The translations under genes were made by a program, and so were the position numbers. From contig CAVPNL010000015.1 in NCBI GenBank assembly GCA_963706575.1, positions 32,001 to 96,000 on the forward strand: a DNA stretch of 64,000 nucleotides. Reading direction: 5' to 3'. This stretch comes from an uncultured delta proteobacterium. Lineage in GTDB: Bacteria > Desulfobacterota > Desulfobacteria > Desulfobacterales > JAHEIW01. Below the pieces are notes generated by a model. That model was not told where the DNA came from, ran no database searches, and saw only the letters and a program-made list of their open reading frames with translations. Positions 2,096 through 52,280 of the stretch are shown here, one piece after another; position 1 is the stretch's first letter; every line of letters starts with the position of its first letter.

Positions 2096-2109
2096 AAGGA
2101 GGCACGGAT

Positions 2110-6641: not shown

Positions 6642-6649
6642 TCACGCAG

Positions 6650-6725
6650 AGCCTGCCCCCGTGTAGATGGGGGCGGGAGTCCAGTTCAAGGACGCCTGGA
6701 TTCCCGCCTGCGCGGGAATGACAGA
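6650..6725. repeat. dRS3/REP-like hairpin, partial core of family C
   Basis: GGCGGGAGTCCAGTTCAAGGACGCCTGGATTCCCGCCTGCGCGGGAATGAC matches the core of 47332-47497. Confidence 0.8.
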
Positions 6726-6742
6726 TCGGCAGTTGTTCGATT

Positions 6743-7537: not shown

Positions 7538-7644
7538 TCCTTTGGATTAAAATTTAGCGCCCATCTTTTATGCCAAAATGAGCCGAAATGGCAAATGATA
7601 CTATCTCAGACAGGTACGGGCTGTCCTCTTATGCAATGGTCATC

Positions 7645-11139: not shown

Positions 11140-11871
11140 TCAGATTGCGTCGGCGAAATGCTTCTTTACGACGGCGGTGTAAACGTAATCGATCATCGTT
11201 AAAAAATCGTAAACCGGCAGCCCGGTCGCCTGTTGAACGGCCTCGCTGTAAGGCGGCATCATGCTGCATTCCAGCAGAAGAGATCTGATTTCCGGATGAT
11301 CAGATGTGATTTCCTTTGCTGCCTGTACGACTTCGGCCCGGATACCGTCACTGTCAAGGGTTCCAATCTCATCAACGACCGCATCCTTGAAATGCTTTTC
11401 ATGCTGTAATCCGCGAATCACGAGTCCGGCGATATCATTCAGACCGATTTTATTGAAAACTTCCGGGGTCAGGGAATCTGAATTGGCCGTTAGCACGCCG
11501 ATCTTGGCGTCGACCGGCAGGGTCGACTGGATAAAGGGAATCTGTAACAGGCTGGACAGAAAGACCGGGATGTTCACGGCCCCTTTAACCTCTTCGTTAA
11601 AAATCGCCATAAAGCCGCAGTCACCCGTAATGGCCTTTACACCTTCGCGTTCCAGCTCCTGCGCGCCGGCGATCATGCCCTCTATGAAGCTGTAATCGTG
11701 GGCGAAAATGCGATCGGTTAAAAGTCCTTCCACTGTTTTAAACCGCACAGGATAATCGTAGCTTTTGGCGTTCCCGACATCGCCCAAGATAAACGGGGTT
11801 TCGGTGTCAAGCAAGAGGATTCCGATCGCTTCGCCGTAACTCGTTTGGCCTTTATTTGCCGTAAAAATCAT
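11140..11871 (-). CDS. Asp/Glu/hydantoin racemase-superfamily protein
   Basis: Two Cys motifs AITGDCGFM and LLECSMMPPY; paralogue of 42525-43259. Confidence 0.85.
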   Translation of the reverse strand: MIFTANKGQTSYGEAIGILLLDTETPFILGDVGNAKSYDYPVRFKTVEGLLTDRIFAHDYSFIEGMIAGAQELEREGVKAITGDCGFMAIFNEEVKGAVNIPVFLSSLLQIPFIQSTLPVDAKIGVLTANSDSLTPEVFNKIGLNDIAGLVIRGLQHEKHFKDAVVDEIGTLDSDGIRAEVVQAAKEITSDHPEIRSLLLECSMMPPYSEAVQQATGLPVYDFLTMIDYVYTAVVKKHFADAI

Positions 11872-23568: not shown

Positions 23569-24771
23569 ATGGAAAAAGCAAGCGTGTCTATCGTACGGAC
23601 ACCAGCCGGATCGGAATTTGAGCAAATTTACGCAGCTGTCAAAGAATCGCTGGATCTCATCGGCGGCATCGAAGATATCGTCCAGCCTGGAAACCTGGTT
23701 TTGATTAATCCGAGCTGGGTGGCGCCGCCGGTCGAAAGAGAGGCCGGCTGTATTACCCTGCCTGAAGTTGCGCGGGCGGTAGCGGATATCGTAAAGGCCG
23801 CCGGTGCGCGGCCGGTAATCGCCGAATCCTCCGCCGTCGGTGTCGATACCGAGAAGGTCCTTCAGAGCTCAGGATATCATGACCTTCAGGAGATGGGCTA
23901 CGAAGTCGTCAACCTGAAGGCCGCCAAGGCGACGGTGGATCTGCCGGTGGAAAACGGCATAATTTTCGATCAGGTGGAATGCTGGGAACTGGTTAAAGCG
24001 GCAGATGTCATCATCAGTGTACCCAAGTTAAAAACCCACGATCAAACCGAAATGACCTGTGCGATCAAAAAACTCAAAGGCCTGCTGACCGATAAGGCCA
24101 AAAAGGCCATGCATCAGGAAGGCCTTTTTGATGGTGTCATTGATTTGCTTTCAGCCGTAAAGCCCAGGCTTGCCGTTGTCGATGCGATCGTCTGTCAGGA
24201 AGGCGTGGGGCCGGTCTTTGGAAAACCGGTGGAAATGAATCTCGTTCTGGCCGGCAAGGATGTGGTCGCCGTAGATGCGGTTTGTGCACGGCTGATCGGA
24301 TACGATCCGGAGGAAACCCTGCTGACCAAAAACGCCGCGGCGCGTGGTTTGGGTGTGATGGATGCCGCAGCGATCGATGTCATCGGCGAACCGCTGGAAG
24401 GCGTTACACGTCGTTTTTTAAGAGCGATCGAAGATGATCCGGTCGAGGTGGAGGGATTTGAATTGATTCACGGAGAAGCCGCCTGTACCGGCTGTCGCAA
24501 TACGGTGATGAGTGCTTTGATCGATATGCGCAATGCCGATCAGCTCATGTACCTGCCGGGTGTCACGGTGGTCACGGGCAAAGCGCCCCTTCCCGCTGAT
24601 ACGTCCCCTGATGATATTGTCACCATCGGGCTGTGTATGAAAGACAACCAGACCGATCGGCATGTCAAAGGCTGCCCGCCCAACAATGCCCTGGTGGTCA
24701 AAGCCATCATCGGCGACCGGGCCGAAGTCAAACGCATGTACGCGGAAGAAAGTCTGGATAAAACCGATTAA
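23569..24771 (+). CDS. DUF362-domain Fe-S protein
   Basis: VLINPSW, IAESS, SVPKLKTH, DAIVCQEGVGP, AVDAV; C-terminal ACTGC...GLC...GCPP. Confidence 0.85.
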   Translation: MEKASVSIVRTPAGSEFEQIYAAVKESLDLIGGIEDIVQPGNLVLINPSWVAPPVEREAGCITLPEVARAVADIVKAAGARPVIAESSAVGVDTEKVLQSSGYHDLQEMGYEVVNLKAAKATVDLPVENGIIFDQVECWELVKAADVIISVPKLKTHDQTEMTCAIKKLKGLLTDKAKKAMHQEGLFDGVIDLLSAVKPRLAVVDAIVCQEGVGPVFGKPVEMNLVLAGKDVVAVDAVCARLIGYDPEETLLTKNAAARGLGVMDAAAIDVIGEPLEGVTRRFLRAIEDDPVEVEGFELIHGEAACTGCRNTVMSALIDMRNADQLMYLPGVTVVTGKAPLPADTSPDDIVTIGLCMKDNQTDRHVKGCPPNNALVVKAIIGDRAEVKRMYAEESLDKTD

Positions 24772-24817
24772 GCGGGCGAGGCGGTCAAGGCGCTTTATTA
24801 AAGGAGGTTTTGGAACG

Positions 24818-25913
24818 ATGGAATCCATTTTGGAATACATGCAAACATATGACTTCGAGAATTTATTTTTCTGTCAGGACAAGGCGCTTGATTTCAAGGC
24901 CATCATCGCCATCCACGACACAACCCTCGGTCCCGCCACCGGCGGCTGCCGCATGTGGCAGGATTACCCCAGCGAGATGGATGCCGTCGAAGACGCCCTG
25001 CGACTGGCACGCGGGATGACTTATAAATACGCGGCCGCAGGGGTGAATCTGGGCGGCGGCAAGGCGGTCATCATCGGCGACCCCAAACGCACGGACCGTG
25101 AGCCGGTCTTCCGGGCTCTGGGGAAATTCATTAATCGTCTGGGCGGCAAATACATCACCGGCGAAGACGTGGGCACCACCCTGCAGGACATGGAATACAT
25201 CCGCATGGAAACAGAGCATGTCGTCACGCTGCCGACCTATTTAGGCGGGGCTGGAGACATTGCCCCCATGACGGCGTATGGTACCATCCGCGCCATGCAG
25301 GCCTGCTGCAACCGGGTCTATCGGCTCGGACAGCCTGGAAGGGAAAAAGGTTGCGATACAAGGGCTGGGGGCGGTCGGTCACAACATGGTCGAGCAGCTC
25401 CACGAGCTCGGTGCCCGGTTGATTGTCACGGACATTGAGCCCGCCAAGGTGGAAAGCATGACAAAGCGTTTCAACGCCAGCGCAGTGCAGGTCGAAGCCA
25501 TCTATGATGTAGATTGTGATATTTTTTGCCCCTGTGCCCTGGGGAAAGTCATCAATGACGATACCCTCAGCCGCCTGAAATGCAAAATTATCTGCGGCTC
25601 CGCCAACAATCAGCTGGCCGAAGAGCGCCATGGTGACCGGCTGGAGGAAGCAGGGTTTGTCTATGCCCCGGATTACATCACCAATGCCGGTGGCACCATC
25701 TATGATACGGATCGGCTCGGGGTCGGTGGGGTCAGCCATGAGCGCGGCAAGGCCAAAGTGGCCCGCATTTATGACAACATGCAGCGGGTGTTTGAGATTG
25801 CCGACCGCGACCGGCTGCCGACCTATCAAGCAGCCGATCGCATGGCAGAGGAGAGAATCAGTCAAATTGCCGAAGTGAAAAAGTATGCCGATACCCTGAG
25901 CCCGGCGTTTTAG
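24818..25913 (+). CDS. Leu/Phe/Val dehydrogenase (one +1 frameshift near 25321)
   Basis: IAIHDTTLGPATGGCR, GMTYK, GGGKAV and TGEDVG in one frame; QGLGAVG, PCALG, GSANNQL and APDYITNAGG in the next; span is 3n+1. Confidence 0.9.
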
Positions 25914-26715: not shown

Positions 26716-28195
26716 TTACTTTTCCTTGTCGACACCTAACTCTTCTTCGGCACCCTCAACGATCGATCGAATCGTCGCAAGGACTCCGTCCGGTAACGGG
26801 TCCGGCTCGTGCGTCTCCAATATTTCCCTGGCTTTGGCAGACGCTCTTTCATAAATATCGGTTCCACCCAACTCTTGCCACTTGGAGCGTCTTCTGCGGT
26901 CGATCAGGCTGGGCTGGGATTGGGATCTCATATGTTTGAGGGTGTGCTTCTGGGCCAGAAAATCCTTAAGCGGCCCGACGTCATGAATGACATCCACCGC
27001 CAGATTTTCGTCATCGACCGGAATCCCATTTAAAACATGTTTGATCATTCCGGCAAATTCATTATCCATCACCAGCTGGCCGAAATCTATTGTGACGCCG
27101 CTTTCAAGCATCCCCAGGCCGTAAACCACGTTGACCCCTGCCAACGCAGCGAGTAGCCCGGTGAGTGTCTTTTCATGACCTGCCTGAGCGTCACCCACTT
27201 TGCTATCGCCCTAACCACCGGCCGCAAAGCACGGCAGGGCATATTTACGGGCTAACTGGGCCACGCCGGCGGTGATCATACCGCATTCCGGGGATCCCAA
27301 CCGTTGCCGTTGTTCGCCATAAATCAATCGGACAGGTGGAGCTCCCATAAATCAAAGGCGATCCTTTACACGTCAGTTGATTGAGGACAAGGCTGCCGAG
27401 GACCTCTGCATTCAATACCACCAGGGTTCCTGCCAGCGTTACCGGCGCCGAACCACCGGCCATGGTCATCGATACAATATTGACGGCCAGCCCGGAACGC
27501 GCGCCCTCCATAATGATTTCGCAATGCTCTTTGGAAAACGTGAGCGGGCTTCCCGGGCAGGTAACAAGAGTGAGCAAGGGACGCTCCCTGAGCTTCTCTT
27601 TGCTGCCGACAATGGCGCTCAACATTTCCACAATTTTCCTGGAGCAGTACCCATTGACAGGGCCTAACCAATGGTGTTTGGAAGTATTGGTTAAAGAGGC
27701 TTCGGCATTATGTAAGGAAACGGTTTCCTGGGGGACATCATGAGAAACCATAATCCTTTCATAGGTATCCAGATTATCCAGATAATCAATAATTTTGGCC
27801 CCATTGACCACATCGGCTTTGACCGTCTCGCGATGTTCACCCGTATAGGGGTCATTGATCTTGATGCCCTCACCGAAATTGGTAAATGTCACCCGGTTTC
27901 TTCCCAGCACAACGTCATTTTTCGGGGTGCGGCCGCAAGCAACGAACTGAGAAGGTGTTGATTGAATGGCTTCTTCTACCACCAGGGGGGGAATTTTGAC
28001 GATCTTTTTTTTGGCGTCCACAATCGCTCCCGCCCCGGCGAAGACTTCCATGGCTTCATTATCGTCAACGAAGACGCCGGTCTTCTGGAGAACTTCCAGG
28101 GTTGCCAGGTGAATGTCCTCGAGCGCATCATCGCTAAAGACATTTAAGCTGAATCCCCCGGTCTGATTGCTCCCGGCATGCAAACTGCGTATCAT
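26716..28195 (-). CDS. mttB: Pyrrolysine-containing trimethylamine methyltransferase (in-frame TAG at 27211-27213; +1 frameshift near 27297)
   Basis: Reconstructed ...ATVGSPECGMITAGVAQLARKYALPCFAAGG(TAG)GDSKVGDAQAGHEKT...; removing one base gives 492 aa; GGAGG RBS before the ATG at 28195. Confidence 0.92.
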
Positions 28196-28516: not shown

Positions 28517-29693
28517 ATGATGCCGTCAATCGATTTAAAACGAATTCGAGCCGAAACACCGGGTTGTGAGGCCGTTTTGCATTTTAACAATGCCGGTGCG
28601 TCCTTGCCGCCGCAGGCTGTTTATCAGGCCGTCACCGACCATCTAAAACTGGAGAGCCGAATGGGAGGGTATGAGGCCGAGGCGCATGCCCAGGAAAAAC
28701 TGAATCGATTCTATCAGGCATTCGCCGCCTTGCTCAATTGCGATCCGGCGGAAATTGCCTTTATCGAAAATGCCACCCGGGCCTGGGATATGGTTTTTTA
28801 CGCGATCCCGTTTAAACCCGGAGATCGTATTTTGACCGCCCGGGCTGAATACGCCAGTAACTATTTGGCCTTTCTGCATGTCGCCAAGCAAAAAGATCTG
28901 AAAATAGACGTGGTGCCCAATGATGCCAGCGGGCAAATCTCGATCGATGCCCTTGAAGAAATGATCGCTGAAGATGTGAAACTGATCGCCATTACGCACG
29001 TGCCCACCCAGGGTGGTTTGATCAATCCGGCCGAGGCCGTCGGTCAAATTGCGCGCAGGCATAATATATTGTATCTGCTGGATGCCTGCCAATCGGTGGG
29101 CCAGATGCCGATCGACGTAAAAAAGATAAAATGTGACATGCTGTCCGGAACGGGCCGTAAATATTTGCGGGGTCCCCGGGGGACCGGATTTCTTTTCATC
29201 CGCCGGTCTTTGATTGAACTGTTAGAGCCGCCGTTTATCGATCTGCATGCCGCCACATGGATCGACAAAGATCAATTTGAAATACAGAAATGATGCCAGA
29301 CGTTTCGAGAATTGGGAGAGCTATATTGCGGGTCGGATCGGACTGGCAACCGCGGTGGACTATGCCCTCGAGATTGGACTTGAGGCCATTCAGGAGCGCG
29401 TTCAGTATTTGGCCGCATTGCTAAGAAATCGCCTCGCTGAATTAGGCGGGGTTGTCGTGCGTGACCTGGGCCAACATCGATGCGGTATCGTGACATTTAC
29501 CAAAGAGGATGAGAGCGCCTCGGCAATAAAACAACGCCTGGCGTCTCACAAGATCAACATATCTGTATCCCCCGCGCGCTACGCCAGGCTTGATCTGGAT
29601 TCAAGAGGAATTAGTGAATTAGCGCGGGCCTCGGTCCATTATTTCAATACCGAAGCGGAAATTGATCGGTTCTGCACCAAACTTTCCCAATAG
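28517..29693 (+). CDS. Class V PLP enzyme (cysteine desulfurase/C-S lyase-like; +1 frameshift near 29284)
   Basis: HFNNAGAS, ENATRAW, LDACQSVGQ, TGRKYLRGPRGTG, then ARRFENWE...RASVHYFNT in the next frame; span is 3n+1. Confidence 0.88.
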
Positions 29694-35382: not shown

Positions 35383-35727
35383 TTAGCAGGTACTACCATT
35401 CCAGCCAAACATAGAAGGTTGCATATCGATCAGGCGATGGTATTGACGATCCGGTACTACGCCCAGTTCCGTTTGCACGAACTCCGTTAGGGTTTTTACA
35501 AACTCCGCGGCCTGCTCCTGTGGAAAAGCGAACAGTTTTAACTGAATATATGCGGTTGGTTCCGTGCTGTCGTCGATCATCAGATGGGCACCGGGATTGA
35601 TGAGCACCATGATCGAACTTTTGGGTTTGTCCAGCATATTCGCCAGCAGATCGGTGGCTTTGTGCAGGAGCGCAGTGCAATGTTCGGGCGTGATGCTTTG
35701 ATTGGTATCTAATGTTAATATCGGCAA
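35383..35727 (-). CDS. MIF/phenylpyruvate-tautomerase family protein
   Basis: 114 aa with N-terminal Pro (MPILTLDTN), KPKSSIMV, EPTAY, C-terminal FGWNGST; GGAGG RBS. Confidence 0.85.
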   Translation of the reverse strand: MPILTLDTNQSITPEHCTALLHKATDLLANMLDKPKSSIMVLINPGAHLMIDDSTEPTAYIQLKLFAFPQEQAAEFVKTLTEFVQTELGVVPDRQYHRLIDMQPSMFGWNGSTC

Positions 35728-35793
35728 TTTGACACCTCCTTAGATCAAGATGACGGGGATGTCATCGGGTTGGTTACAATAGAACGGCCACTT

Positions 35794-36753
35794 CTAACCA
35801 ACCACTTTCAGCTTCGGTTGGATGGGCTGGGGGTCGTAGCCGCTGTCGGCGGTGATGCAAGACACCCCTTCAGCGGTTATCAGATCCCGCAACGTCTCCA
35901 TATGGGCGTCATCCGGGGGATTGATATGATGCAGTTTGTAATCCAGTCCAAGCGCAGTATATTTGGAGAGACCTAATTTGTGATACGGCAGAATTTCAAT
36001 GCCTAACGCACCGGGAAGATGGTCACGAACAAATTTGGCGGTGGCCTTGATGTTCTCTGTGCTGTCATTGATGGACGGTATGACCGGAATTCTGATCACC
36101 ATGGGAATATCAAGCGCTGCAATTTTTTTGGCATTTTCAAGAATTCTCTTATTGGCACCGCCCGTAATTGCTTTATGGGTTTTGTCATCCATGTGTTTGA
36201 TATCAAACAAGACAAAATCAGCCAGCCTGACGGTATCTTCTACAGCTTCCCAGCTAAAAAACCCGCAGGTTTCGATGGCAGCGTGAATCCCCAATTCCTG
36301 GCATCCTTCGATAACTGCTTTCAAGAAATCCGGCTGGGTTAAGGGTTCGCCGCCACTGAAGGTGACACCCCCGGAAGACTTTCGATAAAAAACCATATCT
36401 TTTTTTATGATCTGTATCAGCTGGGTCGCTGACAGTTCTTCCCCCAGCCAGGCACGGGCACCCGAATGACAGACCTCGATGCATTTGCCGCACTGGATAC
36501 ATATACCGCCTGAAAATGCGCCCTCTTTTGCAGGGATGGCAACGTCCTCAGGACATTCCCGGGCGCAGGCATGGCATTCGACACACCTCGAGGGGAAGAT
36601 CCCGATTTGCGGCAGACGATCCTGAGATTCGGGATTCGCGCACCAGGGACAATGCAACGGGCAGCCTTTTAAAAAGACCACTGTTCGGGTACCCGGTCCG
36701 TCCGACACCGACCAGCGCTGGATTTCTATGACTACATTTTTCACTTTAGACAA
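35794..36753 (-). CDS. Glycyl-radical enzyme activating enzyme (radical SAM with ferredoxin insert)
   Basis: DGPGTRTVVFLKGCPLHCPWCANPE, two CxxCxxC motifs, GGVTFSGGEP, IETCG, LPYH. Confidence 0.95.
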   Translation of the reverse strand: MSKVKNVVIEIQRWSVSDGPGTRTVVFLKGCPLHCPWCANPESQDRLPQIGIFPSRCVECHACARECPEDVAIPAKEGAFSGGICIQCGKCIEVCHSGARAWLGEELSATQLIQIIKKDMVFYRKSSGGVTFSGGEPLTQPDFLKAVIEGCQELGIHAAIETCGFFSWEAVEDTVRLADFVLFDIKHMDDKTHKAITGGANKRILENAKKIAALDIPMVIRIPVIPSINDSTENIKATAKFVRDHLPGALGIEILPYHKLGLSKYTALGLDYKLHHINPPDDAHMETLRDLITAEGVSCITADSGYDPQPIQPKLKVVG

Positions 36754-36796
36754 TTAACTATAACCGATCTTAATCTGCCTCAGTGCGGATTAACAC

Positions 36797-36935
36797 CAAA
36801 TGAGCTAAAATTAAAAATGATCTAAAATGCCTAAAATTACAGTCTCGCTGCGCTCCATCTACTATTATAAAAATGACAGAATTCCTCAATTTTAGGCATT
36901 TTAGCTCATTTTAGGCACTTTAGGCACTGCTAACT
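36797..36935 (+). repeat. Family E repeat array, copy 2 (core motif in the opposite orientation)
   Basis: Arms match 8805-8918; core TCGCTGCGCTCCATCT is the reverse complement of 8849-8864. Confidence 0.9.
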
Positions 36936-36992
36936 TACCAGCACCTCTGGAACTTATTTCTCTGTCATCCAAAATAGACTATTAATTTGGAA

Positions 36993-39422
36993 TCAAAGAC
37001 TTTCATGCGTGGTGCGGCGAATAATCTCGTTTTGCACTTCCTTGGAAAGATCATTAAAAATGGCGCAATAGCCCGCGACACGGACCACCAAATCACGATA
37101 GTTATCCGGATTCTTTTGGGCATCCCGCAGGGTCTCCGGGCTGATGACGTTAAACTGGCAGTGATAGCCGCCGAGTTCAAAATAGGATCGAATCAGATTG
37201 GCCATGCCGGCCAGGCCACGATTGCCCTCGATGGCAGAAGGCAGCAGCTTGAGATTCAGCAGGGTTCCACCGGGATGTAATTCGTGGTTGACTTTTGCTT
37301 CGGAGCGCATGGCCGCAGTGGGTCCACTGGTATCGGTTCCCGGGTGAGGGGAGCAGCCTTCGGCCAGCGGATGGGTTGCTTTACGCCCGCAGGGAAGCGC
37401 ACCCACCACCGAACCGGTGGGAATATTATAGGTCAGCCCCATAATCGCGCTATGGAAGGGGTTGCCCAACGAATCTTTGTAGCGGCTCAGCCCTTTATCA
37501 TTATAGTCCGTCATTTCGACCTGGAGACGATCGACATAATCATCATCATTGCCGAACTTGGGAGAATTCTTGAGCAATTGCTGAATTTCTTCATGGCCGA
37601 CAAAATCGTCGTCCAGGGCCTTAACCAGCTGGTCCATGGTGATGTTCTTTTCCTCAAACACATTCTTTTTAATGGCCGCCAGGCCGTTGGCACAGTCGGC
37701 TGCGCCCACGACAATCCAACCCGGACCGACATTATAGCGGGCACCGCCGTTTACCAGGTCTTTGCCGCTTTCCATGCAGCCTTCGACCAGAAGAGAAAGA
37801 TAGGGACGATGAACCATTTTGCGATGCAGTTTGTGCTCAATCACGGTCGAAACCGCACAGTGTTTCATAATGTGGTCGACTTGCTCAAAAAAAGTTTCTT
37901 TAAGCTCTTCGAAAGAAGTAAACTCACGCGGGTCTCTGGTGGGCAAACCCATTTGTTTACCGGTGAGGCGGCTGCGGCCCTGATTGAGTGTCCATTCCAG
38001 GGCGGCTGCCATGTTGTAGCCACCCGCATCCGTCCACTCATAAACCTTGCGGTGATGGGGTACAACACAGCCGAGCAACGTCCACTCCCGGGCATCGTCG
38101 GGCCGCAATCCGGCATACATCATCATCTGGGTACCCACCTGATCATTGTGAAAGGCCGGGAAGCCGATACCTTTACGGGAGAGGCGGCAGCAGGCCAGTA
38201 AAAATTCTTGCGGCGTATCCGGTTGAATAATGACACTCAGGGAGGGTTGCGGCAGGGCAACCTGGGATGTGGCCTCGACAGCCATGAAACTGACATCATT
38301 TACGGCATCGCTGCCATCAATGTTGCGACCGCCGACACTCAGATTGGTAAAACCACTGTAGCCGGCATAATATCGACTGCCATTCTGGGGCAAGAGCCAG
38401 ATGAGTTCGGCAATTTTTATCCAGATGCAGTTAATAATTTCCTGTGCAAATTCTTTTTTTATACTGTCTGTTTCCAGATCGGCTTGAAAAAACGGATTCA
38501 TATACATGTCAAAGCGCCCGATATTGAAGGCCGGGCAGTTTTCGGAAAGAAAGCAACCCAGCATCACAAACCACAGCATTTGCCCGGCTTCCCAGAAGTT
38601 ACGTGGTGAATATTCCGGTACCCGGCGGCAGTTTGCCGCAATGGTTTCCAGTTCCTTTTTGCGCCCGGGATCCTGTTCTTTTTTGGCCATGTCCGCTGCA
38701 TACTCAGCATAGCGTTTTCCTAACGTAATAATCCCCTCACAGGCCTCGATGGCTGCTTTGTAGTAATCGATTTTATCAAGGTCTTCGTCATTGGTATATT
38801 TTAAGGTTTTCAGTTTTTCTTTGGCTTCATCACAGATAGCCCGAAATCCTTTCGGAAAAATGATATCCTGAAAATCGGGGGTAATTTCACCGACATGACT
38901 GCGCCATTTCATTTCGGTATCAAGAATATCCGTATCCACACCAATTTTGAGGGTGTCTTCAGGGAACCGTGCCAGGGCGTTCTCTTCAAGGGATTTTCCT
39001 TGCCAGTAAGGAATAATTTCTTCAACAAACAGGCGTTCTTGTTCCGGGTCTATATAATAGGGGTCGCGAGGTCTTGTTTGAACGGTGTCCAGCTCTTTGG
39101 CAAGCCACTTCCAAGAAATTTCAGGGACCAGGGCGCCCATTCGGCGTGCAGAGCCGTGGGTTCCCACGATTAATTCGTCGTCAAATATATTGAGAGTTAT
39201 GGTTTCACACGCCAAACGAAAGGCCTTGGCCAGGCGCACCGTCGTGGCTTGGCCTTCGGTTTCTTTGTAAGAGCGGGTAAACGCCAGGGCCCGCTCCATA
39301 CATATCGCCGGCTTTGAATCCAAATAGGCGTTTTTTAAACGCTGGGTTCTCGTTTCCTCCTTAAAAACACTCGACGATTCACTCGTATCATACGTTAAAT
39401 CAATGGCTTCCTGTGCTGGCAT
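36993..39422 (-). CDS. Glycyl radical enzyme of unassigned specificity
   Basis: DELIVG, GRFD, PQPSLSV, Cys loop LLGCVVP, PKFGNDD, Gly loop VVRVAGY; GGAGG RBS before the ATG at 39422. Confidence 0.95.
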   Translation of the reverse strand: MPAQEAIDLTYDTSESSSVFKEETRTQRLKNAYLDSKPAICMERALAFTRSYKETEGQATTVRLAKAFRLACETITLNIFDDELIVGTHGSARRMGALVPEISWKWLAKELDTVQTRPRDPYYIDPEQERLFVEEIIPYWQGKSLEENALARFPEDTLKIGVDTDILDTEMKWRSHVGEITPDFQDIIFPKGFRAICDEAKEKLKTLKYTNDEDLDKIDYYKAAIEACEGIITLGKRYAEYAADMAKKEQDPGRKKELETIAANCRRVPEYSPRNFWEAGQMLWFVMLGCFLSENCPAFNIGRFDMYMNPFFQADLETDSIKKEFAQEIINCIWIKIAELIWLLPQNGSRYYAGYSGFTNLSVGGRNIDGSDAVNDVSFMAVEATSQVALPQPSLSVIIQPDTPQEFLLACCRLSRKGIGFPAFHNDQVGTQMMMYAGLRPDDAREWTLLGCVVPHHRKVYEWTDAGGYNMAAALEWTLNQGRSRLTGKQMGLPTRDPREFTSFEELKETFFEQVDHIMKHCAVSTVIEHKLHRKMVHRPYLSLLVEGCMESGKDLVNGGARYNVGPGWIVVGAADCANGLAAIKKNVFEEKNITMDQLVKALDDDFVGHEEIQQLLKNSPKFGNDDDYVDRLQVEMTDYNDKGLSRYKDSLGNPFHSAIMGLTYNIPTGSVVGALPCGRKATHPLAEGCSPHPGTDTSGPTAAMRSEAKVNHELHPGGTLLNLKLLPSAIEGNRGLAGMANLIRSYFELGGYHCQFNVISPETLRDAQKNPDNYRDLVVRVAGYCAIFNDLSKEVQNEIIRRTTHESL

Positions 39423-39460
39423 GGCTAACCTCCTTTGCATGAAGATTTTAGGCTTTTATA

Positions 39461-39492
39461 CTTGTATACAAGAATACAGGTTGGCCTGTCAA
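39461..39492 (-). promoter_or_regulatory. Sigma-70 promoter of the GRE operon with a GntR/FadR-type palindrome
   Basis: Minus-strand TTGACA (39487-39492); the perfect palindrome CTTGTATACAAG (39461-39472) overlaps the -10. Confidence 0.6.
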
Positions 39493-42524: not shown

Positions 42525-43259
42525 ATGATTTACAAAGCGAACAAAGGGCAAACCAGTTACGGCGAAGCCATCGGCATCATTCTGATGGAAAGCTTCATGC
42601 CTTTCCCGCCGGGCTGCCCCGGAAACGCCACAACCTTTTCTTTTCCGGTCAGATATGCCAATGTCAAAGGCGCCAATATGGAAAAATTGGTCTATCAGGG
42701 CGATCCCGAGCTGCTAAAGCCCTTCATCGATGCCGGTTGGGATCTGGTTAACGAAGGGGTCAAAGCGATTACCGGAAATTGCGGATTTATGGTTCTCTAC
42801 CATGAGGTGATGGCCAAGGAATTTCCGGTCCCGGTTTTTATGTCCAGTTTATTGCAGTTGCCGTTTATCTCCCGCATGCTGAAGCCCGGTGAAAAGATTG
42901 GCATCATCACAGCCAGTGGCAAAACCTTAACAGAAAAACATTTGCAGATTGCCACCAATGGCGCTAATATCCCCCTCGCCATCGCCGGCATGGAGGATCA
43001 AAAGCATTTTTATGATGCGATTCATGCCGAAGTCGGGGAACTCGATTTCGACGGGGTTGAAGCGGAAGTCGTTCAGGTGACCCGGAACCTGGTTGAAAAG
43101 GAAGAAAATATTAAAGCGATTTTATTTGAATGTACCGATCTTCCCCCATATGCGGCTGCGACTCAGGAAGCGGTCGGATTGCCTGTTTTCGATTTTTCGA
43201 CCATGATTAATTATGTACATTCGGGCCTTGTCCGCAAAAGATTTGAGGGCTTCTGTTAA
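42525..43259 (+). CDS. Asp/Glu/hydantoin racemase-superfamily protein
   Basis: AITGNCGFM and LFECTDLPPY; paralogue of 11140-11871. Confidence 0.85.
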   Translation: MIYKANKGQTSYGEAIGIILMESFMPFPPGCPGNATTFSFPVRYANVKGANMEKLVYQGDPELLKPFIDAGWDLVNEGVKAITGNCGFMVLYHEVMAKEFPVPVFMSSLLQLPFISRMLKPGEKIGIITASGKTLTEKHLQIATNGANIPLAIAGMEDQKHFYDAIHAEVGELDFDGVEAEVVQVTRNLVEKEENIKAILFECTDLPPYAAATQEAVGLPVFDFSTMINYVHSGLVRKRFEGFC

Positions 43260-43325: not shown

Positions 43326-44792
43326 ATGTCTGAAAAAGTTTATCAAAAAAAAGCGTTTATCGGGGGTGAATGGGTCGAATCGGAAAGTGGTGAACGATTC
43401 GAGGTCAATTATCCGGGCGATGGCAGTGTCATCGGTACGGCACCGGCCTGCACCCGTAAAGATGCCCAGAAAGCGATAGATGCGGCCATCGAAGGGCAGA
43501 AAGCCCTGGCAAAACTTTCGCTGGTAAAACGCATCGAACTGCTGCACAAGGCGACGGAGCTCGCGAAAAAAAGAGATGAAGAATCATCCCGTCTCACCTG
43601 TCTGGAATCCGGAAAGCCCATCCAGCAGGCCATCTGGGAGGGAAGCACCATCGATGGCTATAGCTGGAGTAATTTCCACGTTGCGGCTGCCAATATAAAA
43701 TCGCACCGCGGCATGACCCTGCCCAATGTCACCGAAGATTCCAACAATAAACGCTTAATCCATATTTACGAACCGGTGGGCGTGGTGGTGAACATTTCAA
43801 CCTTCAGCTATCCCTCTGAAATGCCCAATTGTACGATTCCCTATGCCCTGGCAGCGGGCAATGCCGTTATTGTGAAACCGTCATCCGGATCACCTTTCAG
43901 CAGCATTCTTATCGCCGAGGTCTTGGAGGAGGCCGGTTTTCCGCCCGGCAGCATTAATGTGTTGACCGGTGCCGGTGAAGAAGTCGGAGCGGAATTGGCC
44001 GCCAATTCGGGCACCCAGGCAATCGGCCTTTTTGGCCAGGAGCAAACCGGCGAAAAAGTGGCCCGGAATGCGGCCATGAAAAAACTGTTGTTTGCCATCG
44101 TGTCGAACAATCCGCTGATCGTCATGGATGATGCCAACATCGAAGCGGCCGTGGAAGCCGCCATCGGCGGGTGCTATGCTCATAACGGGCAGTCGCCGAT
44201 ATCCACCCGACGAATATTGCTTCACAAAGATGTGCACCAGGGTTTTATAAGCCGCTTTGTGGAAAGAACCCAGGCCCTCAACCTGTCAGACCCGTTGGAT
44301 GAAAAGGCAGACGTCGGGCCGGTCCACAACAGCAAAGTGCTTGAAGTCGCACTTAGCCATCTGGAAGATGCTCGCAAAAAAGGCGCTAAATTTTTAACCG
44401 GCGGCAACAACCCCAAAGGGCTTTATATAGAGCCTACCATAATCGATGAGGCCACCGGCGACATGCTCGTCACCCAGGAAGCCACACCGGGTCCGATAGC
44501 GCCGATCATGACGTTTGAAAATATCGATCAGGCCGTCGAGCTGGCCAATTCAACACGCTTTGGGTTTCAGATCGGCGCGTTTACCAGTGGTCTGGCAAAT
44601 GCCTATTATCTGGCTGAGAACATTCAAGCCGGTAGCGTGTATATCAACGAAGCGACCAATTGCTGGGATGAAATGGCGCCCTTCGGCGGTGTCAAGAAAA
44701 GCGGCATCGGCAGAATGCTGTCGGATTGGACATTCAATGAATTAAGCCAGATCAAAATGATTTTATTTGATCTCGGCAAAGTAAAAAAATAA
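43326..44792 (+). CDS. Aldehyde-dehydrogenase-fold protein lacking the canonical catalytic residues
   Basis: ALDH scaffold (EPVGVV, ALAAGNAVIVKPS, PFGGVKKSGIGR), but GQSP for GQxC, LFAIVS for LELGG, LFGQ for FTGS and TFSYP for PWNxP. Confidence 0.88.
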   Translation: MSEKVYQKKAFIGGEWVESESGERFEVNYPGDGSVIGTAPACTRKDAQKAIDAAIEGQKALAKLSLVKRIELLHKATELAKKRDEESSRLTCLESGKPIQQAIWEGSTIDGYSWSNFHVAAANIKSHRGMTLPNVTEDSNNKRLIHIYEPVGVVVNISTFSYPSEMPNCTIPYALAAGNAVIVKPSSGSPFSSILIAEVLEEAGFPPGSINVLTGAGEEVGAELAANSGTQAIGLFGQEQTGEKVARNAAMKKLLFAIVSNNPLIVMDDANIEAAVEAAIGGCYAHNGQSPISTRRILLHKDVHQGFISRFVERTQALNLSDPLDEKADVGPVHNSKVLEVALSHLEDARKKGAKFLTGGNNPKGLYIEPTIIDEATGDMLVTQEATPGPIAPIMTFENIDQAVELANSTRFGFQIGAFTSGLANAYYLAENIQAGSVYINEATNCWDEMAPFGGVKKSGIGRMLSDWTFNELSQIKMILFDLGKVKK

Positions 44793-44802: not shown

Positions 44803-46782
44803 ATGGGTTATATGCGTGGTGGAACCATTTTAAGGATAGATCTGGGGACAGGCTCGATTGTAAGAGAACCGACCGCCGATTACACAAAACAGTGGTTCGG
44901 CGGACGGGGGCTGAATTCCAGAATCCTTTATACGGAAACCGGCCCGGCAGTCAAACCGCTGGAACCGGAAAATGTGCTGATGTTCAGCCTCGGCCCTTTT
45001 ACCGGAACCATGGTGCCCGGCTCCGGCCGGGTCGAAGTGGCCGCAAAATCACCGGTCATCGGCATCCAAGGCATGGGCAACATGGGCGGCTACTGGGGGC
45101 CGGAGCTAAAATATGCGGGTTATGACAGCATCATTCTAAAAGGCAAAGCAGCCAAGCCGGTCTACATTGCCATCCATAATGACGAAGTCGAGATAAAAGA
45201 CGCCGCGCATCTCTGGGGAATGGACACCTACCGGACCCAGGACGCCATTCGGCAGGAAATGGGCGATCCCGAGATCGAAGTGGTTTGTATCGGGCCGGCC
45301 GGCGAAAATATGATCGGCTATGCCTCCATCCAGAACCGCATGGGAAATGCCGCCGGGCGAACCGGTATGGGTACCGTCATGGGATCTAAAGACCTCAAGG
45401 CCATTGCCGTGCGCGGCACCAAGGGCGTGGCCATCGCGGAGCCCGACAGATTTTTTGAATTGTGCCTGGAGGCCCTGCAGATTCAAAAGCCCCAGCTGGG
45501 AATGGCCAAAACCATCGATCTGGCCGACAACGATCCCCCATCGTGGGGGCTGACACTGGGAAACTACGAAGCCACCGAATGGGAAAAGCAAAAAGAATTA
45601 AAAGACGGACACAAGCCCTTTTGGGAAAACCACAAAAACCGCCAGGGAGAAGGCATCACCGGATGCTTCAACTGCCAGGTCCGCTGCATGGATTACTACG
45701 AGCTTCCCGAATGGGGCCCTCTGGTCGCCAGCTGCAACCTGTATGCCTCGACCACATGGGTATTAAAGGATCCGGACATGAAATCCTGGTATGCGTTTGT
45801 TTCAAAATGCCAGCGCCAGGGCATTGATTCCACCTCGGCTTCACGCATGATTGCCTGGGCCATGGAACTTTATGAACAGGGCAAAATCACTCAAAAAGAT
45901 ACAGACGGAATCGCGCTCAACTGGGGAAACAAAGAAGCCATTGGTCTGATGCTCGACAAAATCGTCAAAAAAGAAGGTTTTGGCGAGGTGTTGGCCAGCA
46001 ATCCGGCCGAGGCCGCCAAAAAGATTGGTGATGACGTTGAAGAAGCCTTACAGATAAAGGGTCTGCCCCTGGGGGGCACCAACGTCATGAATTTCCGGGC
46101 GCGGACCATCGGCGCGGTGGTCAATCCCAGAGGCGGTGATGAATATCGCGCCCGGGTCGGTGCCTTCGACAATCTCGGCAGCGGTAAGAATACCGGAATG
46201 ACCGGAATGTCCAGCCCCGACAGCTGGGAAGCCAAAACCGCCATGTCCATCATCGATGCGGCCCTGGCGAAAAAGAAAGAGGCCGGGGAAGAGCCGATAA
46301 TCGGCCAGTTCGATTACGAGGGCCGCGGGGCGCTGGCCGCCTTGGGCCAAAAGATTTCGACAGTCAGTGATACGCTGGGACAGTGCAAATGGAATACCAT
46401 TTTTCTGAATGTGGGCATTAGCATGGAGTTTCAGGCCAACGCCCTTTCGGCGGGAACGGGACGGGAGACAGGCATCGAAGAGCTCCTGGAAGCCGCATCA
46501 CGCATCTCCTGCCAGGAAAGAGCTTATGCCGTGCGCGAGGGGATGACGAAAGATCAGGACACCCTGCCTAAAAAATTGATCAATTATTCGATGGCGGGAA
46601 CCTATCCGGATGACCAGGTCACGCCGGAGGGCCTAGAAAAAATGAAAGACGAATATTATCAAGCAATGGGCTGGGATGTTAAAACCGGTATTCCAACGCT
46701 CGATACCCTGCGTGCGCTCAATCTGGAAGATGTGGCATCTGATTTGATCAAACAGGGTAAACTTAAAGATGAAATAAAGTAG
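44803..46782 (+). CDS. Aldehyde:ferredoxin oxidoreductase family (tungstopterin) protein
   Basis: GGRGL, AKSP, LKYAGYD, IGPAGEN, AAGRTGMGTVMGSKDLKAIAVRG, GCFNCQVRC, YYQAMGWD. Confidence 0.93.
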   Translation: MGYMRGGTILRIDLGTGSIVREPTADYTKQWFGGRGLNSRILYTETGPAVKPLEPENVLMFSLGPFTGTMVPGSGRVEVAAKSPVIGIQGMGNMGGYWGPELKYAGYDSIILKGKAAKPVYIAIHNDEVEIKDAAHLWGMDTYRTQDAIRQEMGDPEIEVVCIGPAGENMIGYASIQNRMGNAAGRTGMGTVMGSKDLKAIAVRGTKGVAIAEPDRFFELCLEALQIQKPQLGMAKTIDLADNDPPSWGLTLGNYEATEWEKQKELKDGHKPFWENHKNRQGEGITGCFNCQVRCMDYYELPEWGPLVASCNLYASTTWVLKDPDMKSWYAFVSKCQRQGIDSTSASRMIAWAMELYEQGKITQKDTDGIALNWGNKEAIGLMLDKIVKKEGFGEVLASNPAEAAKKIGDDVEEALQIKGLPLGGTNVMNFRARTIGAVVNPRGGDEYRARVGAFDNLGSGKNTGMTGMSSPDSWEAKTAMSIIDAALAKKKEAGEEPIIGQFDYEGRGALAALGQKISTVSDTLGQCKWNTIFLNVGISMEFQANALSAGTGRETGIEELLEAASRISCQERAYAVREGMTKDQDTLPKKLINYSMAGTYPDDQVTPEGLEKMKDEYYQAMGWDVKTGIPTLDTLRALNLEDVASDLIKQGKLKDEIK

Positions 46783-46804
46783 AACCTAATATGGAGGCTG
46801 GTAA

Positions 46805-47335
46805 ATGAGCAACGTTATCATTATTCATCCCGAAAAGTGCAGTGGCTGCCAGATGTGTGAGGTCAGCTGCTCTCTCAGAAATATGAAGGAATGCAATCCG
46901 GAACGATCGCGCATCCGCGCCATCAAGTCCGAAGAAAATGGCCAGCTCCAGTTTATCCCGTCCACCTGTATGCAGTGTGAAACGGCGATGTGTGAATTGG
47001 TCTGTCCGGTGAATGCCATCAGCAGAGATCCGCAAACGGGCGCCCGGATTATTAGCGAAAAAAAATGTATTGGCTGCAGTTCCTGCAGTTACGCCTGCCC
47101 CTTCGGTGCCTGTTTCGTCGACCGCAGCCTGGGCAAATCCATTGTTTGCAATCAGTGTGACGGCGATCCCACCTGTGTTAAAGTGTGTCCGTCCGGTGCG
47201 CTTGAATATGTGAATGCCGACCAGGTGAACATCAGCCTCAAGCGGGCGGCTGCCCGGCGTATTATGAATGCCCAGGAGATCATTCGAGAATCGCCCGGAC
47301 CGCTGAACGTCAAACCGGATCAGGACCTGTGCTAG
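46805..47335 (+). CDS. 4x[4Fe-4S] electron-transfer subunit (DmsB/AorA-like)
   Basis: CSGCQMCEVSC, CMQC...C...CP, CIGCSSCSYACP, CNQC...C...CP. Confidence 0.92.
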   Translation: MSNVIIIHPEKCSGCQMCEVSCSLRNMKECNPERSRIRAIKSEENGQLQFIPSTCMQCETAMCELVCPVNAISRDPQTGARIISEKKCIGCSSCSYACPFGACFVDRSLGKSIVCNQCDGDPTCVKVCPSGALEYVNADQVNISLKRAAARRIMNAQEIIRESPGPLNVKPDQDLC

Positions 47336-47497: not shown

Positions 47498-47553
47498 GCA
47501 GTTCCATCTGCAAGAATTGAACGCCATCGAAATCTGTAAAAGAGGAGGTGGAT

Positions 47554-49219
47554 ATGGTTTGGCAGGGCGATACCTATGATGAAATATGCCGTAATTTCAG
47601 ATGGGAGTTTCCGGAATATTTCAATATCGGCGTGGATATTTGCGATAAATGGGCCGACGACAAATTCCGTTTAGCACTGATATACCTTGATGAGGATGAA
47701 CGCGAGCACAAAATTACCTACTGGGAATTAAAAAACGCCTCAAATCGACTGGCAAATGCATTGCGAGAATACGGTGTCGCCCGCGAGGACCGCATCGGGA
47801 TATTAATGGCGCCCGCGCCGGAGACCTTAATTTCCCATATTGCCGTTTACAAATTGGGCGCCATCCTGGTACCCATGATCCAGCTTTTTGGGCCTCTGGC
47901 GATCGAGTATCGCCTTAAAAACAGCGGGGCCAAAAGCGTTATTACGGATAAAAAAAATCTGGCGAAAATTTTAGAAATTAAAGATCGCCTTCCCGACCTG
48001 AAACTTATCATCGCGGTCGATGCCCAGGGAGAGACGGATGTCTTGGACTTTGGGGAGACATTAGCCCGTGGCAGCCGGTATTTCACACCGGTGGAAACAA
48101 AACCGGATGACCCGGCCTTAATTATTTACACCTCAGGGACCACGGGCCCTCCCAAAGGCGCACTTCACGGTCATCGCCTGATGATTGCCGAGGCCACCAA
48201 TACGGGGTTCTCGCTTGACCTTTTTCCCCAAAAAGGAGATCTGCTGTGGACCCATTGCGATTGGGCCTATATCGCGGGATCCTTTACCGCTCTTTACCCG
48301 ACAATGCATTACGGGCAAGCCATCGTTGAGTATGCCAAAACCGGGAGATTTGATTCCGAAAAGGCTTTTTCCATTATCTCCAAATATGGCGTCACGGTGA
48401 TATTTGCGATCGCCACGGCGTTCCGGATGATGATGCATGCGGTCAAGAATCCGAAAGAGCGTTACGATCTGGATGAATTGAGATCCATCACCGTGGGCGG
48501 CGAGACCATGGGAAAGGATCTCTACGAATGGGGCCAGAGGGCGCTGGGGGTTGAATTCAACGAAAATTACGGTATGACCGAATGCGATTTCATGGTTTCC
48601 AATTGTTCCAAAATCATGAAGGTTTACCCGGGTTCGATGGGCCGCGCGATTCCCGGACATATCGTTGAAGTCATCGATGAGCAGGGTAACGTCCAGGAAG
48701 CCGGCGAGTATGGTGAGTTTGCGATCAAACAACCTGATCCCAGCATATTTCATCGGGTACTGGGGCGATCCGGAAGCCACCCAAAAACGATTTATCGGCG
48801 AATGGTTTCGCACCGGTGATTACGGCACCAAAGATGAAAACGGCTATTTCTGGTTTACCGGCCGCAGGGATTACGTCATCGAAAGCGGCGGTTATCGAAT
48901 CGGACCTGGCGAGGTCGAAGATGCACTGGTCAAGCACGATGCCGTGAAACTGGTCGCCGTGATCGGTGTTCCGGATGAGATCAGAGGTGAAATTGTCAAG
49001 GCGTTCATTGTGCCCGAGCAGGGTGTGACGGCGGATAAAGCACTGGAAGATCGCCTCAAACAGCATGTCAAAGGCCAATTGGAGGCACACGCCTATCCGC
49101 GGGAGATAGAATTCCTCGAGGAGATGCCGATGACGGACACCGGCAAGATTATGAAAAATGAGCTGCTCAAAATGGATCAAAAAAGCCGCACCAAAATAAA
49201 AGCGGATAAAGAAAAATAA
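47554..49219 (+). CDS. Acyl-CoA synthetase (AMP-forming; +1 frameshift near 48750)
   Basis: YTSGTTGPPKG and YGMTE, then FRTGD, GRRD, GYRIGPGEVE and TGK in the next frame; span is 3n+1. Confidence 0.92.
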
Positions 49220-49233
49220 TAAGGAGGCCGGCG

Positions 49234-50067
49234 GTGGGGACACAATTAATACAAAACTGGGTTGAAGATCGTATCGGGTGGATCGCGCTCAACAACACCC
49301 GCAGAAAGAATGCCCTTCACAATACGATGTATGAATCGATTCTTTCTTTACTCGACGCCTATGAAAAAGATGAGCAAGTCCGGACCATTGTGCTCAAGGG
49401 CAACGAGGGTAATTTTTCTGCGGGCTACGATCTGTCGCAGGGTTTGCCGGACCCGTACCGTGATTTTGTTAAAGATCTCTCCAGCGCTTCGGCAAAACGG
49501 CTCTGGTATTGCAAAAAACCCACCATTTCAATGGTCGAAGGCTACTGTGTGGGGGGCGGTTTTGAATTGGCGATGGGGGCGGACCTGGTCTATGCCGCCG
49601 AGGATGCCGCGCTTGGCGAGCCGGAAATCGATTTCTTTTTTACGCCGGATTACAATAGCATCCCCTGTCTGACGCTGGCCAGAAAAGCCAAGGAAATGAT
49701 ACTGCTGGGCAGCGTTATCAGCGGCAGCGAAGCGGCTGCCGTCGGACTGGTAAATAAAGCCTTCCCGCAGCAACAGCTGGAAGCGGAAGTAATCAAAATC
49801 TGTCATCGCATTGCCAGCCTGCCTTCAGAGACCGTAGAAGTGGCCAAAGTCGGCTTAAACGGCGCTTTAGACGCACAGGGTTTTAAAAACGCCATCGATT
49901 ATGGTGAGGAAATTGCGATATACAACGGGCTGCTGAGTAAAACCAATCCGAAATGCGAGTTGTTTTACAGGACCGCTAAAGAAAAGGGAATTAAAGAAGC
50001 CATAAAGCTGGTAAGGGATTACACGCAATCCGGTCAGATGGGCGAAGCGGGCTGGAAAAAAGATTAG
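49234..50067 (+). CDS. Enoyl-CoA hydratase/isomerase family protein
   Basis: RKNAL, FSAGYDL, GYCVGGGFELA, GEPEI. Confidence 0.9.
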   Translation: MGTQLIQNWVEDRIGWIALNNTRRKNALHNTMYESILSLLDAYEKDEQVRTIVLKGNEGNFSAGYDLSQGLPDPYRDFVKDLSSASAKRLWYCKKPTISMVEGYCVGGGFELAMGADLVYAAEDAALGEPEIDFFFTPDYNSIPCLTLARKAKEMILLGSVISGSEAAAVGLVNKAFPQQQLEAEVIKICHRIASLPSETVEVAKVGLNGALDAQGFKNAIDYGEEIAIYNGLLSKTNPKCELFYRTAKEKGIKEAIKLVRDYTQSGQMGEAGWKKD

Positions 50068-51629: not shown

Positions 51630-52280
51630 ATGAAAATATCCCTTCAAGAATTTGCCTATAATAAATGCCAGGAACTGATTGGATCGGGCGAATTATCTCC
51701 CGGTCAGCTTTACAGTGAATCGGCGATGTCCAAGCAATTGGGAATTTCGAGAACCCCCCTCCGAACTGCCTTGCAGCAACTTGAAAGAGACGGGTTAATC
51801 ATCCGACTGCCGCAGCGGGGCTTTTACGTCTATCAATTTGAAGAAAAAGATATCGAGGAGCTTTTTGCCATCCGAAAAGCGATAGAAGGTTATGCCGTTG
51901 AACACATTGCCAAGAAAAAAGGAGAGATTGATCTAGAACCGGCAATGATACATTTGAAGGCCCAGGAGGAAGCGCGGCAATCCGATGATTATTCGATCTT
52001 TATCCGGGAAGACAGGAAATTTCACGAAAATCTGGTCAACGCCCTCGATAACAAGCGCCTGGTGATGATATACTCCGACATGCGACAGTCAATTGAACTC
52101 ATCGGCCTGAAGCGGTTCAAAATGAACAGTCAGCGTAATCAATCCATCGCCGAGCATAAAACCATCATCGAGGCCATTGAAGACGGCGACCCCCTGGCCG
52201 CCCGGGAAGCCGTTTATAATCACCTGGATATGGCCATGGTTTCATTGAAGAAGTATCTGAAATCAATCGACCAGCTTTGA
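51630..52280 (+). CDS. GntR (FCD) family transcriptional regulator
   Basis: LGISRTPLRTAL HTH, DRKFHE, SIAEHKTI, NHL. Confidence 0.93.
   Translation: MKISLQEFAYNKCQELIGSGELSPGQLYSESAMSKQLGISRTPLRTALQQLERDGLIIRLPQRGFYVYQFEEKDIEELFAIRKAIEGYAVEHIAKKKGEIDLEPAMIHLKAQEEARQSDDYSIFIREDRKFHENLVNALDNKRLVMIYSDMRQSIELIGLKRFKMNSQRNQSIAEHKTIIEAIEDGDPLAAREAVYNHLDMAMVSLKKYLKSIDQL

Follow-up and report, generated by a model that had tools for sequence, protein, structure and literature searches.

Glycyl radical enzymes (GREs) are sensitive to oxygen and share a radical relay in which an activase generates a glycyl radical, the glycyl radical gives rise to a cysteine thiyl radical, and the latter abstracts hydrogen from the substrate. 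A stretch of 64,000 nucleotides from an uncultured delta proteobacterium (contig CAVPNL010000015.1, positions 32,001 to 96,000; hereafter the window) encodes a GRE whose Cys loop reads GCVVP and which is most similar to the choline trimethylamine-lyase CutC. This protein belongs to a real, widespread and uncharacterised CutC-like clade of GREs, designated here as the GCVVP clade, which lacks the Cys-x-Glu (CxE) motif by which its nearest families are defined.

In the available part of a 2026 review of the superfamily (PMC13450708), the eliminases and isomerases are described as employing CxE with the Glu bound to the substrate hydroxyl, a role that is confirmed in the accessible portion of a second source (PMC7077986). 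The same part of the review presents Glu491 of CutC as essential, PFL as the owner of a Cys-Cys loop and Gln484 of the phenylacetate decarboxylase PAD as essential, and names no CxV enzyme. The Glu502Gln variant of IAD is described as a PAD mimic, and Arg226 is proposed as the carboxylate binder of IAD, in the portion at hand of a third source (PMC9248008).

Val460 and the family position of the enzyme

The GRE gene is located on the minus strand at 36993-39440 as an open frame of 815 codons, according to which residues are numbered here rather than by a shorter version of 809 amino acids. The latter length, the same as that of the closest homologues, would result from the likely start at the second ATG (39422), which lies behind AGGAGG. 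Membership of the GRE superfamily was established by PF02901 and PF01228, both above cut-off, and the Gly loop RVAG790Y (37068-37082, minus strand) was assigned from the translated frame and the homologue alignment. The Cys loop, G-C458-V-V460-P within LLGCVVPHH (38058-38072, minus strand), carries Val where eliminases have Glu. On the same strand lie the genes of a radical SAM activase (35794-36753) and of an accessory MIF-family tautomerase (35383-35727), and all three genes, the MIF gene with its Pro1 included, were found intact at the positions that an initial annotation of the locus had given. The activase, which adjoins the GRE, exceeds the TIGR02494 cut-off (349.5 vs 174.35) and contains CxxxCxxC together with two extra ferredoxin-type cluster motifs.

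The codon of V460 is GTA (38061-38063), and the initial annotation had cautioned that it stands a single base from the Glu codon GAA. This caveat can be lifted, since the homologues show GCVVP and not GCVEP: the motif is present in 120 of the 120 best-listed homologues (the best 120 of 1081 matches, at 51-95% identity). Across 67 GCVVP frames from the fetched loci, the Val is encoded by GTA (24), GTG (21), GTT (15) and GTC (7), the last two being two changes away from Glu. A sequencing error at 38062 was ruled out by the uniformity of these 120 homologues and the use of all four Val codons. In the labels used below, L denotes fetched loci with GRE homologues, G genomes, X public sequencing runs and P protein representatives. 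Contigs of X1, X2 and X15, which derive from related strains, span the site and contain only synonymous changes among those listed (38064, 38067 and 38070), an observation of little weight when taken alone. Portions of the GRE are also represented in contigs of RNA libraries (X15 and X17), for the most part with a likeness of less than 95%, but contigs cannot show transcription.

The CxE motif of eliminases and isomerases is absent from the clade, as CxV was found in all 121 aligned sequences. In a set of the best 150 representatives, clustered at 50%, the residue two positions after the Cys is Glu in 111 and another residue in 38, the region being missing in one, and Val was encountered once, in a member of the GCVVP clade. 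Loss of the Glu is common among unstudied GREs, and Val marks the GCVVP clade. The fixed Glu-to-Val exchange makes a different chemistry likely, as had been held at the outset; the accompanying list of known GRE alternatives left out PAD, in which Gln occupies this position. An inactive or structural GRE homologue would explain why a residue essential in relatives has been lost, and a neighbouring ALDH-fold protein likewise lacks its catalytic residues. The Cys, the Gly and the activase are nevertheless kept across two phyla (57 of 78 loci yielded an activase, and the remaining loci are in many cases short), the variation at V460 is synonymous and the operator is conserved, which leaves this explanation extremely improbable.

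Among the NCBIfam profiles scored, no cut-off was reached by the window GRE, whose scores were 732.9 for CutC (TIGR04394; cut-off 1050), 630 for HypD (1100), 605 for HpsG (1000) and 668.5 for the PFL2/GD subfamily (678.2). The TIGR04394 scores of other GCVVP members range from 706 to 773. The predicted structure (pTM 0.87) has a TM-score of 0.92 to CutC, which was also the best match in the search of solved structures at about 630 bits. The protein is thus not CutC, in agreement with the initial annotation, and it does not cluster with any of the characterised GREs compared by profiles, structure search or two trees. Monophyly of the clade received a support of 1.0 in a 98-sequence FastTree (21 members; the 75 best near-full-length representatives included) and an SH-aLRT of 100 in a 28-sequence tree (8 members; a hand-picked 20 included), both trees being without an independent root; CutC was recovered as the sister group with an SH-aLRT of 95.7 in the 28-sequence tree. 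No characterised member was found among the papers listed by searches of the open-access literature, outside which most subscription papers lie. That literature contained no co-mention of glycyl radical and GCVVP, its co-mentions of GRE and tautomerase appear unrelated, and the ESM Atlas gave generic names only. One protein representative, P0207, is CutC-like and has an intact GCVEP loop together with the Lys of position 178 and the Glu of position 185; it is a possible CutC-to-GCVVP intermediate.

These comparisons also bear on C-C chemistry, namely a formate-lyase-like cleavage with a single Cys or a hydroalkylase without small subunits. In favour of such chemistry, the Cys-loop Glu is missing in PFL (CC) and also in benzylsuccinate synthase, and an acyl-CoA ligase gene is present in the linked run of the window genus. 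On the other hand, the protein has a single Cys and no Cys-Cys pair, the formate lyase profile TIGR01255 was matched at 146.3 vs 994.2, and BSS and MASS scored 278-325 bits where CutC reached about 630. Moreover, the MIF gene is the only small gene in the unit (frames of at least 80 amino acids), so that no small subunit of the X-succinate synthase type was found among these frames, in line with the initial annotation. A C-C reaction is accordingly assigned a small probability.

Predicted substrate pocket and candidate reactions

The pocket was mapped through P0212, a CutC by cut-off whose numbering is two ahead of the D. alaskensis enzyme. Phe389, Phe395 and Thr502 of CutC correspond to Y358, F364 and T470 of the window protein, while Asp216, Glu491, Tyr208, Tyr506 and Leu698 are replaced by E185, V460, M177, G474 and M667, respectively. 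We take Asp216, Phe395 and Tyr506 to be the residues that bind the ammonium group in CutC; E185, which aligns with Asp216, also aligns with His160 of HypD. The cap segment K178-W179-R180...E185 is encoded at 38886-38909 (minus strand), and all four of its named residues are invariant among the 121 aligned sequences, as are V460, C458, G790 (a gap in one fragment), Y361, F364 and T470. In 150 other GREs, E185 occurs in 1% and K178 in 3%, and W179 is rare too. The simplest reading of this alignment-based pocket would combine an amine-binding end, an anion-binding end and the absence of a hydroxyl beside the Cys; since the eliminase Glu binds the substrate hydroxyl, Val argues against a hydroxyl there.

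Our preferred reading, held tentatively, is that the intact GRE acts as a base-free lyase that cuts a C-N or C-S bond of an amino-acid-type substrate without a hydroxyl at the reacting carbon. A lyase is supported by CutC, which cleaves a C-N bond itself, leads the matches in sequence, profile and fold alike and is the sister group in one of the two trees. Following the general scheme of the family, the activase would create the radical at Gly790, which would in turn produce the thiyl radical at Cys458. The amine or ammonium end of the substrate may be accommodated by the CutC-like pocket (E185, Y358, F364 and T470), while the anionic end may be held by the invariant K178/R180. The thiyl radical would then take a weak alpha-amino, alpha-thio or alpha-carboxyl hydrogen, after which the substrate radical would lose an amine or thiol by beta-scission, a step for which no Glu would be needed. 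The imine, enamine or unsaturated product would be converted to an aldehyde or acid, which in Desulfobacterota could be taken on by a linked oxidoreductase, aldehyde:ferredoxin oxidoreductase (AOR), and the MIF protein would merely speed a tautomerisation that also runs unaided, which would fit its loss. N-methylated amino acids, betaines and methionine-type thioethers are candidate substrates.

More doubtful is the broader proposal that the clade represents a new mechanistic class of GREs, in which C-N or C-S radical beta-scission would take place without an acid-base residue in the Cys loop. It would then give access to an anaerobic pathway for an amino-acid derivative that has not been described before and that gut Firmicutes, C. 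difficile included, would have in common with marine relatives of sulfate reducers; in these relatives the pathway would be coupled to an ALDH-fold protein that lacks the Cys and has a new function.

Several observations weigh against a base-free lyase. The pocket positions 177, 303, 471, 474 and 671-672 differ among subclades, so that substrates may differ as well; the register of K178-R180 against CutC moves by two between alignments; and the support for CutC as the sister group is just 0.32 in the 98-sequence FastTree. The distant loci (43-58% GRE identity), which form 43 non-redundant groups, 17 of them flanked by 4 kb or more on each side, provide no uniform context either: an M20 amidohydrolase gene is missing from 35 of the 43 groups and from 12 of the 17, no substrate-specific gene was found in common across the clade, and many Firmicutes loci comprise only regulator, GRE and activase. 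The Desulfobacterota neighbours are situated in a large amine-catabolism island, and some of the linkage may be incidental. Furthermore, no base-free GRE lyase is listed in the available part of the review (PMC13450708).

The conserved cap residues could also serve a PAD-like, non-oxidative radical decarboxylase of an amino acid or related carboxylate, in which the invariant K178/R180 could bind the carboxylate, as proposed for Arg226 of IAD; PAD itself has Gln for the Cys-loop Glu. A decarboxylase is unlikely, however, as the scores for IAD (434.6; cut-off 1100), HPAD (375; cut-off 1150) and AAD (327.6 bits against the solved structure) are far below those for CutC, and the linked AOR is easier to reconcile with an aldehyde as the product than with a hydrocarbon or an amine. 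A variant of CutC that acts on choline or on one of its O-esters (phospho-, sulfo- or acetylcholine), with no free hydroxyl needing a base, would be in keeping with the CutC-like pocket residues, with the gene of a pyrrolysine-type trimethylamine methyltransferase 7 kb away and with the failure to find CutC in the genome. This is very improbable given that Glu491 is essential in CutC, that neither Tyr208 nor Tyr506 is conserved, that three genomes devoid of the GRE have the methyltransferase as well, and that the Firmicutes neighbours are amidohydrolases rather than choline genes.

The MIF gene, other neighbours and the promoter

The MIF gene matches PF01187 (68.2 vs 22) and has Pro directly after a TTG start, and Pro1 is present in all five aligned GRE-linked copies. 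Like the MIF and phenylpyruvate tautomerases (PF01187; PDB 2XCZ and 1HFO), these proteins have the common length, Pro1, the Lys32 equivalent and the C-terminal GWNG. Unlinked bacterial MIFs have KSIG, KIG or SVG where the GRE-linked ones have KLF, and the latter end in a conserved Cys, which indicates that the pocket differs from that of unlinked MIFs.

A MIF gene or its remnant adjoins the GRE in eight of the 19 loci whose GRE is at least 75% identical. It is intact in L004, L005, L006, L015 and L017 (with the same protein in L017 as in L006), the contig of L001 ends within it, and in L003 and L018 only a C-terminal remnant is left. Several of the 11 close loci without it are too short to tell, while L002, L011 and L012 are long enough. 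No MIF gene was detected by tblastn and the MIF profile in any of the 57 loci at 43-58% GRE identity (43 non-redundant groups, 17 with the flanks described above). Contigs of X2 and X15 carry the same deletion as the remnant loci (35519-35795). Within the window genus, the gene occurs in three of the five GRE-bearing genomes: G410 has it at full length, G405 has a cut copy and G403 a remnant. It was found neither in the other two, G293 (97% complete) and G411 (91%), whose GREs are 91-92% identical, nor in any of the 16 genomes without the GRE. The linked copies, at 45-92% identity, lie upstream in L005, L006, L015 and L017 and downstream in the window and L004. The MIF gene is therefore a real yet optional part of the cassette in one close Desulfobacterota subclade, and Pro1 together with the two gene positions suggests selection where it is kept.

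These counts (eight of 19 close loci, none of 57 distant ones) contradict the earlier idea that the MIF neighbour defines the GRE class. The further suggestion of the initial annotation, an enol/keto tautomer as substrate or product, read here with MIF as a needed partner, has in its favour that MIF stays adjacent in both positions despite its divergence, that it keeps Pro1 and the Lys32 equivalent, and that in the window genus it was found only in GRE-bearing genomes. It is not supported, in view of the patchy distribution of the gene, its absence from the distant loci, the remnants in L003 and L018, the same deletion in X2 and X15, and the failure to find it in G293 and G411, and we consider it improbable.

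Facing away from the GRE on the plus strand is a run that begins with an Asp/Glu-racemase-family gene recognised by the PRK07475 profile (42525-43259), followed by the gene of an ALDH-fold protein (43326-44792), by AOR with a ferredoxin-like subunit (44803-47335), which is GRE-linked also in Desulforhopalus singaporensis, and by an acyl-CoA ligase and an enoyl-CoA hydratase-family gene (47548-50067), linked in the window genus only. The run of racemase-family, ALDH-like, AOR and ferredoxin genes has this orientation in both the window genus and D. singaporensis (76, 67, 66 and 76% identity, respectively); the PRK07475 gene is directly divergent from the GRE in L003, L010 and L005, and two further genes separate the run from the GRE in the window. 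The ALDH-like gene was present in four of the five GRE-bearing genomes and none of the 16 others of the window genus, a tighter link than that of MIF, albeit among genomes that are kin. Homologue alignment revealed that its product is devoid of the catalytic Cys, Glu and Asn: Pro takes the place of the Cys (NGQSPIS) and Ala that of the Glu, and the oxyanion Asn is missing. The Pro and Ala are common to 80 of the best 120 ALDH-fold homologues, which makes this a conserved non-canonical ALDH family.

A second PRK07475 gene lies at 11140-11871 (minus strand). The product of 42525-43259 contains NCGF and ECTD, close to the DMSP-lyase motifs of Alma1. PRK07475 has been described as a bacterial subfamily without DMSP-lyase activity (PMC10349084), on which account such activity is not assumed for this gene.

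In L005, L015 and L099, the gene after that of the activase encodes an MttB methyltransferase, and MocR-type regulators adjoin the GRE unit in L007, L077 and L100. The usual unit of the distant, mostly Firmicutes loci is regulator, GRE and activase, with GntR regulators in 19 of the 43 groups and XRE in 10. A CPG2-like M20 amidohydrolase gene is found within 8 kb in eight groups, Gate-domain transporters in six and OSBS/N-acylamino-acid-racemase-family genes in two, in several arrangements. Taken together, the neighbours, with roles in the metabolism of amino acids and methylamines and in the oxidation of aldehydes, point to amino-acid derivatives and name no single compound; along with the CutC-like pocket, they are better clues to the reaction than the tautomerase.

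They also bear on a radical racemase or ring-opening isomerase, by which an alpha-amino hydrogen would be removed and returned or a cyclic amino acid such as N-methylproline would be opened. In its favour, genes for racemases, for epimerases and for D-aminoacylase-like proteins are met repeatedly in the vicinity; the G426 operon has near it an enolase gene like that of proline-betaine racemase and a gene like that of cis-3-hydroxyproline dehydratase; the tandem paralogues of L005 and L006 have different pockets; and an extra Cys at position 456 occurs in 85 of the 121 aligned sequences, in Firmicutes-type members only. Position 456, however, is Leu in 36 of the 121, the window protein among them, separate racemases next door would render the role redundant, and the known GRE isomerases keep CxE in the available part of PMC13450708. 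Such a reaction is considered unlikely.

Further observations concern single genes. The MttB gene of the window (26725-28195, minus strand) is frameshifted near 27295, its L002 orthologue has an in-frame TAG, the genome contains tRNA-Pyl, and PYLIS is matched by the sequence at 27114-27213. The L099 locus of G426 (498-7833) has enolase, aconitase-X cis-3-hydroxyproline-dehydratase-like and old-yellow-enzyme genes near the GRE operon; the structures nearest the enolase are presumably those of proline-betaine racemase and hydroxyproline-betaine epimerase. Pantothenate biosynthesis genes are found a few kilobases from the GRE in three unrelated loci (L007 11491-12378, L051 8569-9435 and L059 14353-17386), possibly by chance. 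Two-frame genes occur at 24662-25913 (amino-acid dehydrogenase), 28517-29693 (SufS/EgtE-like) and 47548-49219 (the acyl-CoA ligase, frameshifted in the assembly); the orthologues of the latter two are whole in L004, L018 and L088, which suggests indel errors in this assembly.

The gaps between GRE and activase and between activase and MIF measure 239 and 66 bp, and no terminator-like site of the minus strand was found in either. The larger one harbours a dispersed repeat (36797-36928), identified by blastn (268 pieces genome-wide) and its depth in public runs (above 1000), which is skipped in other strains. Upstream of the GRE, the palindrome CTTGTATACAAG (39461-39472) is a probable GntR-type operator over the -10 region, and TTGACA (39487-39492, minus strand), kept in close homologues, is a probable -35 box; for want of a consensus -10 behind it, the promoter scan did not report it. 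A single occurrence of CTTGTATACAAG in the genome, against 0.38 expected, is unremarkable alone; of 13 related loci, however, 10 have the palindrome core in front of the GRE, and it also precedes the tandem paralogues of L005 and L006. Two other near-identical sites of the genome precede GntR-regulator-like genes, while a second exact site was not found in the 64-kb window and the operator search of the genome gave no informative target. The GntR-family gene at 51630-52280 (plus strand) encodes the probable repressor, as judged by the position of its orthologues (72-74% identical), which are directly divergent from the GRE in L014 and L052. We infer from these sequence features that the GRE promoter is repressed by a GntR regulator. 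In 17 Firmicutes-type loci, no riboswitch or T-box at gathering score adjoins the GRE, the three matches kilobases away being unrelated.

Taxonomic range and relation to characterised enzymes

The clade was found in sediment Desulfobacterota and in Firmicutes. Its distribution in the former is patchy: three of 401 genomes of the class, two of 401 of the phylum (second query), one of 301 of the D. singaporensis order and five of 21 of the window genus. The Firmicutes members include Sporomusa, Alkaliphilus, Peptoclostridium acidaminophilum and a 329-member Clostridioides difficile cluster; cultured carriers are D. singaporensis, P. acidaminophilum, Sporomusa acidovorans and C. difficile. In C. 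difficile, the gene is probably CD630_11200, to judge from the order of GRE, activase and regulator in a table within the available part of PMC6311696, the one relevant match obtained for this locus tag. D. singaporensis and G426 each possess two tandem paralogues with their own activases, 58-59% vs 82% identical to the window GRE. The tandem GCVVP paralogues at L005 6000-13451 and L006 2972-9816, likewise with their own activases, have the MIF gene between the pairs, and the second paralogue shows a different pocket (WTYAGQ and ESSPAF). The only other GRE found in the genome, that of L008 (G000:C3:435388-437331), has the HypD-like loop GCIETG, and a HypD-like gene is directly upstream of the GCVVP gene in L020.

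Public records name members of the clade formate acetyltransferase, cutC or choline trimethylamine-lyase, and mislabelled members may inflate metagenomic counts of trimethylamine-producing genes. In the available part of PMC13450708, each GRE clade newly characterised in the last decade is seen to have yielded a new anaerobic reaction. The GCVVP clade is the most CutC-like, yet it cannot use the CutC mechanism, which offers a good chance of new chemistry. Its occurrence in the cultured strains named above, together with the regulator and its predicted operator TTGTATACAA, opens a direct route to substrate screening.

Among characterised enzymes, CutC (PDB 5FAU, 5A0U and 6VUE) is the nearest solved relative, with 38-39% identity. 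The clade resembles it at the positions of Phe389, Phe395 and Thr502, in having an acidic residue where CutC has Asp216, and in an activase with ferredoxin motifs, but differs in the exchange of Glu491 for Val, of Tyr208 for Met, Ser or Ile, of Tyr506 for a small residue and of Asp216 for Glu, and in the addition of Lys178, Trp179 and Arg180. The GRE 1,2-eliminases and isomerases (glycerol and propanediol dehydratases, HypD, HpyG, HpzG, IslA/IseG, HpsG, HpfG, HplG, YbiW and PflD) share the fold and the single catalytic Cys at 31-39% identity; in the available part of PMC13450708 each of these classes has the Cys-loop Glu, in contrast with the Val of the GCVVP clade. PAD (PhdB), compared by description, likewise lacks this Glu, yet it carries the polar, essential Gln484 where the GCVVP clade has Val.

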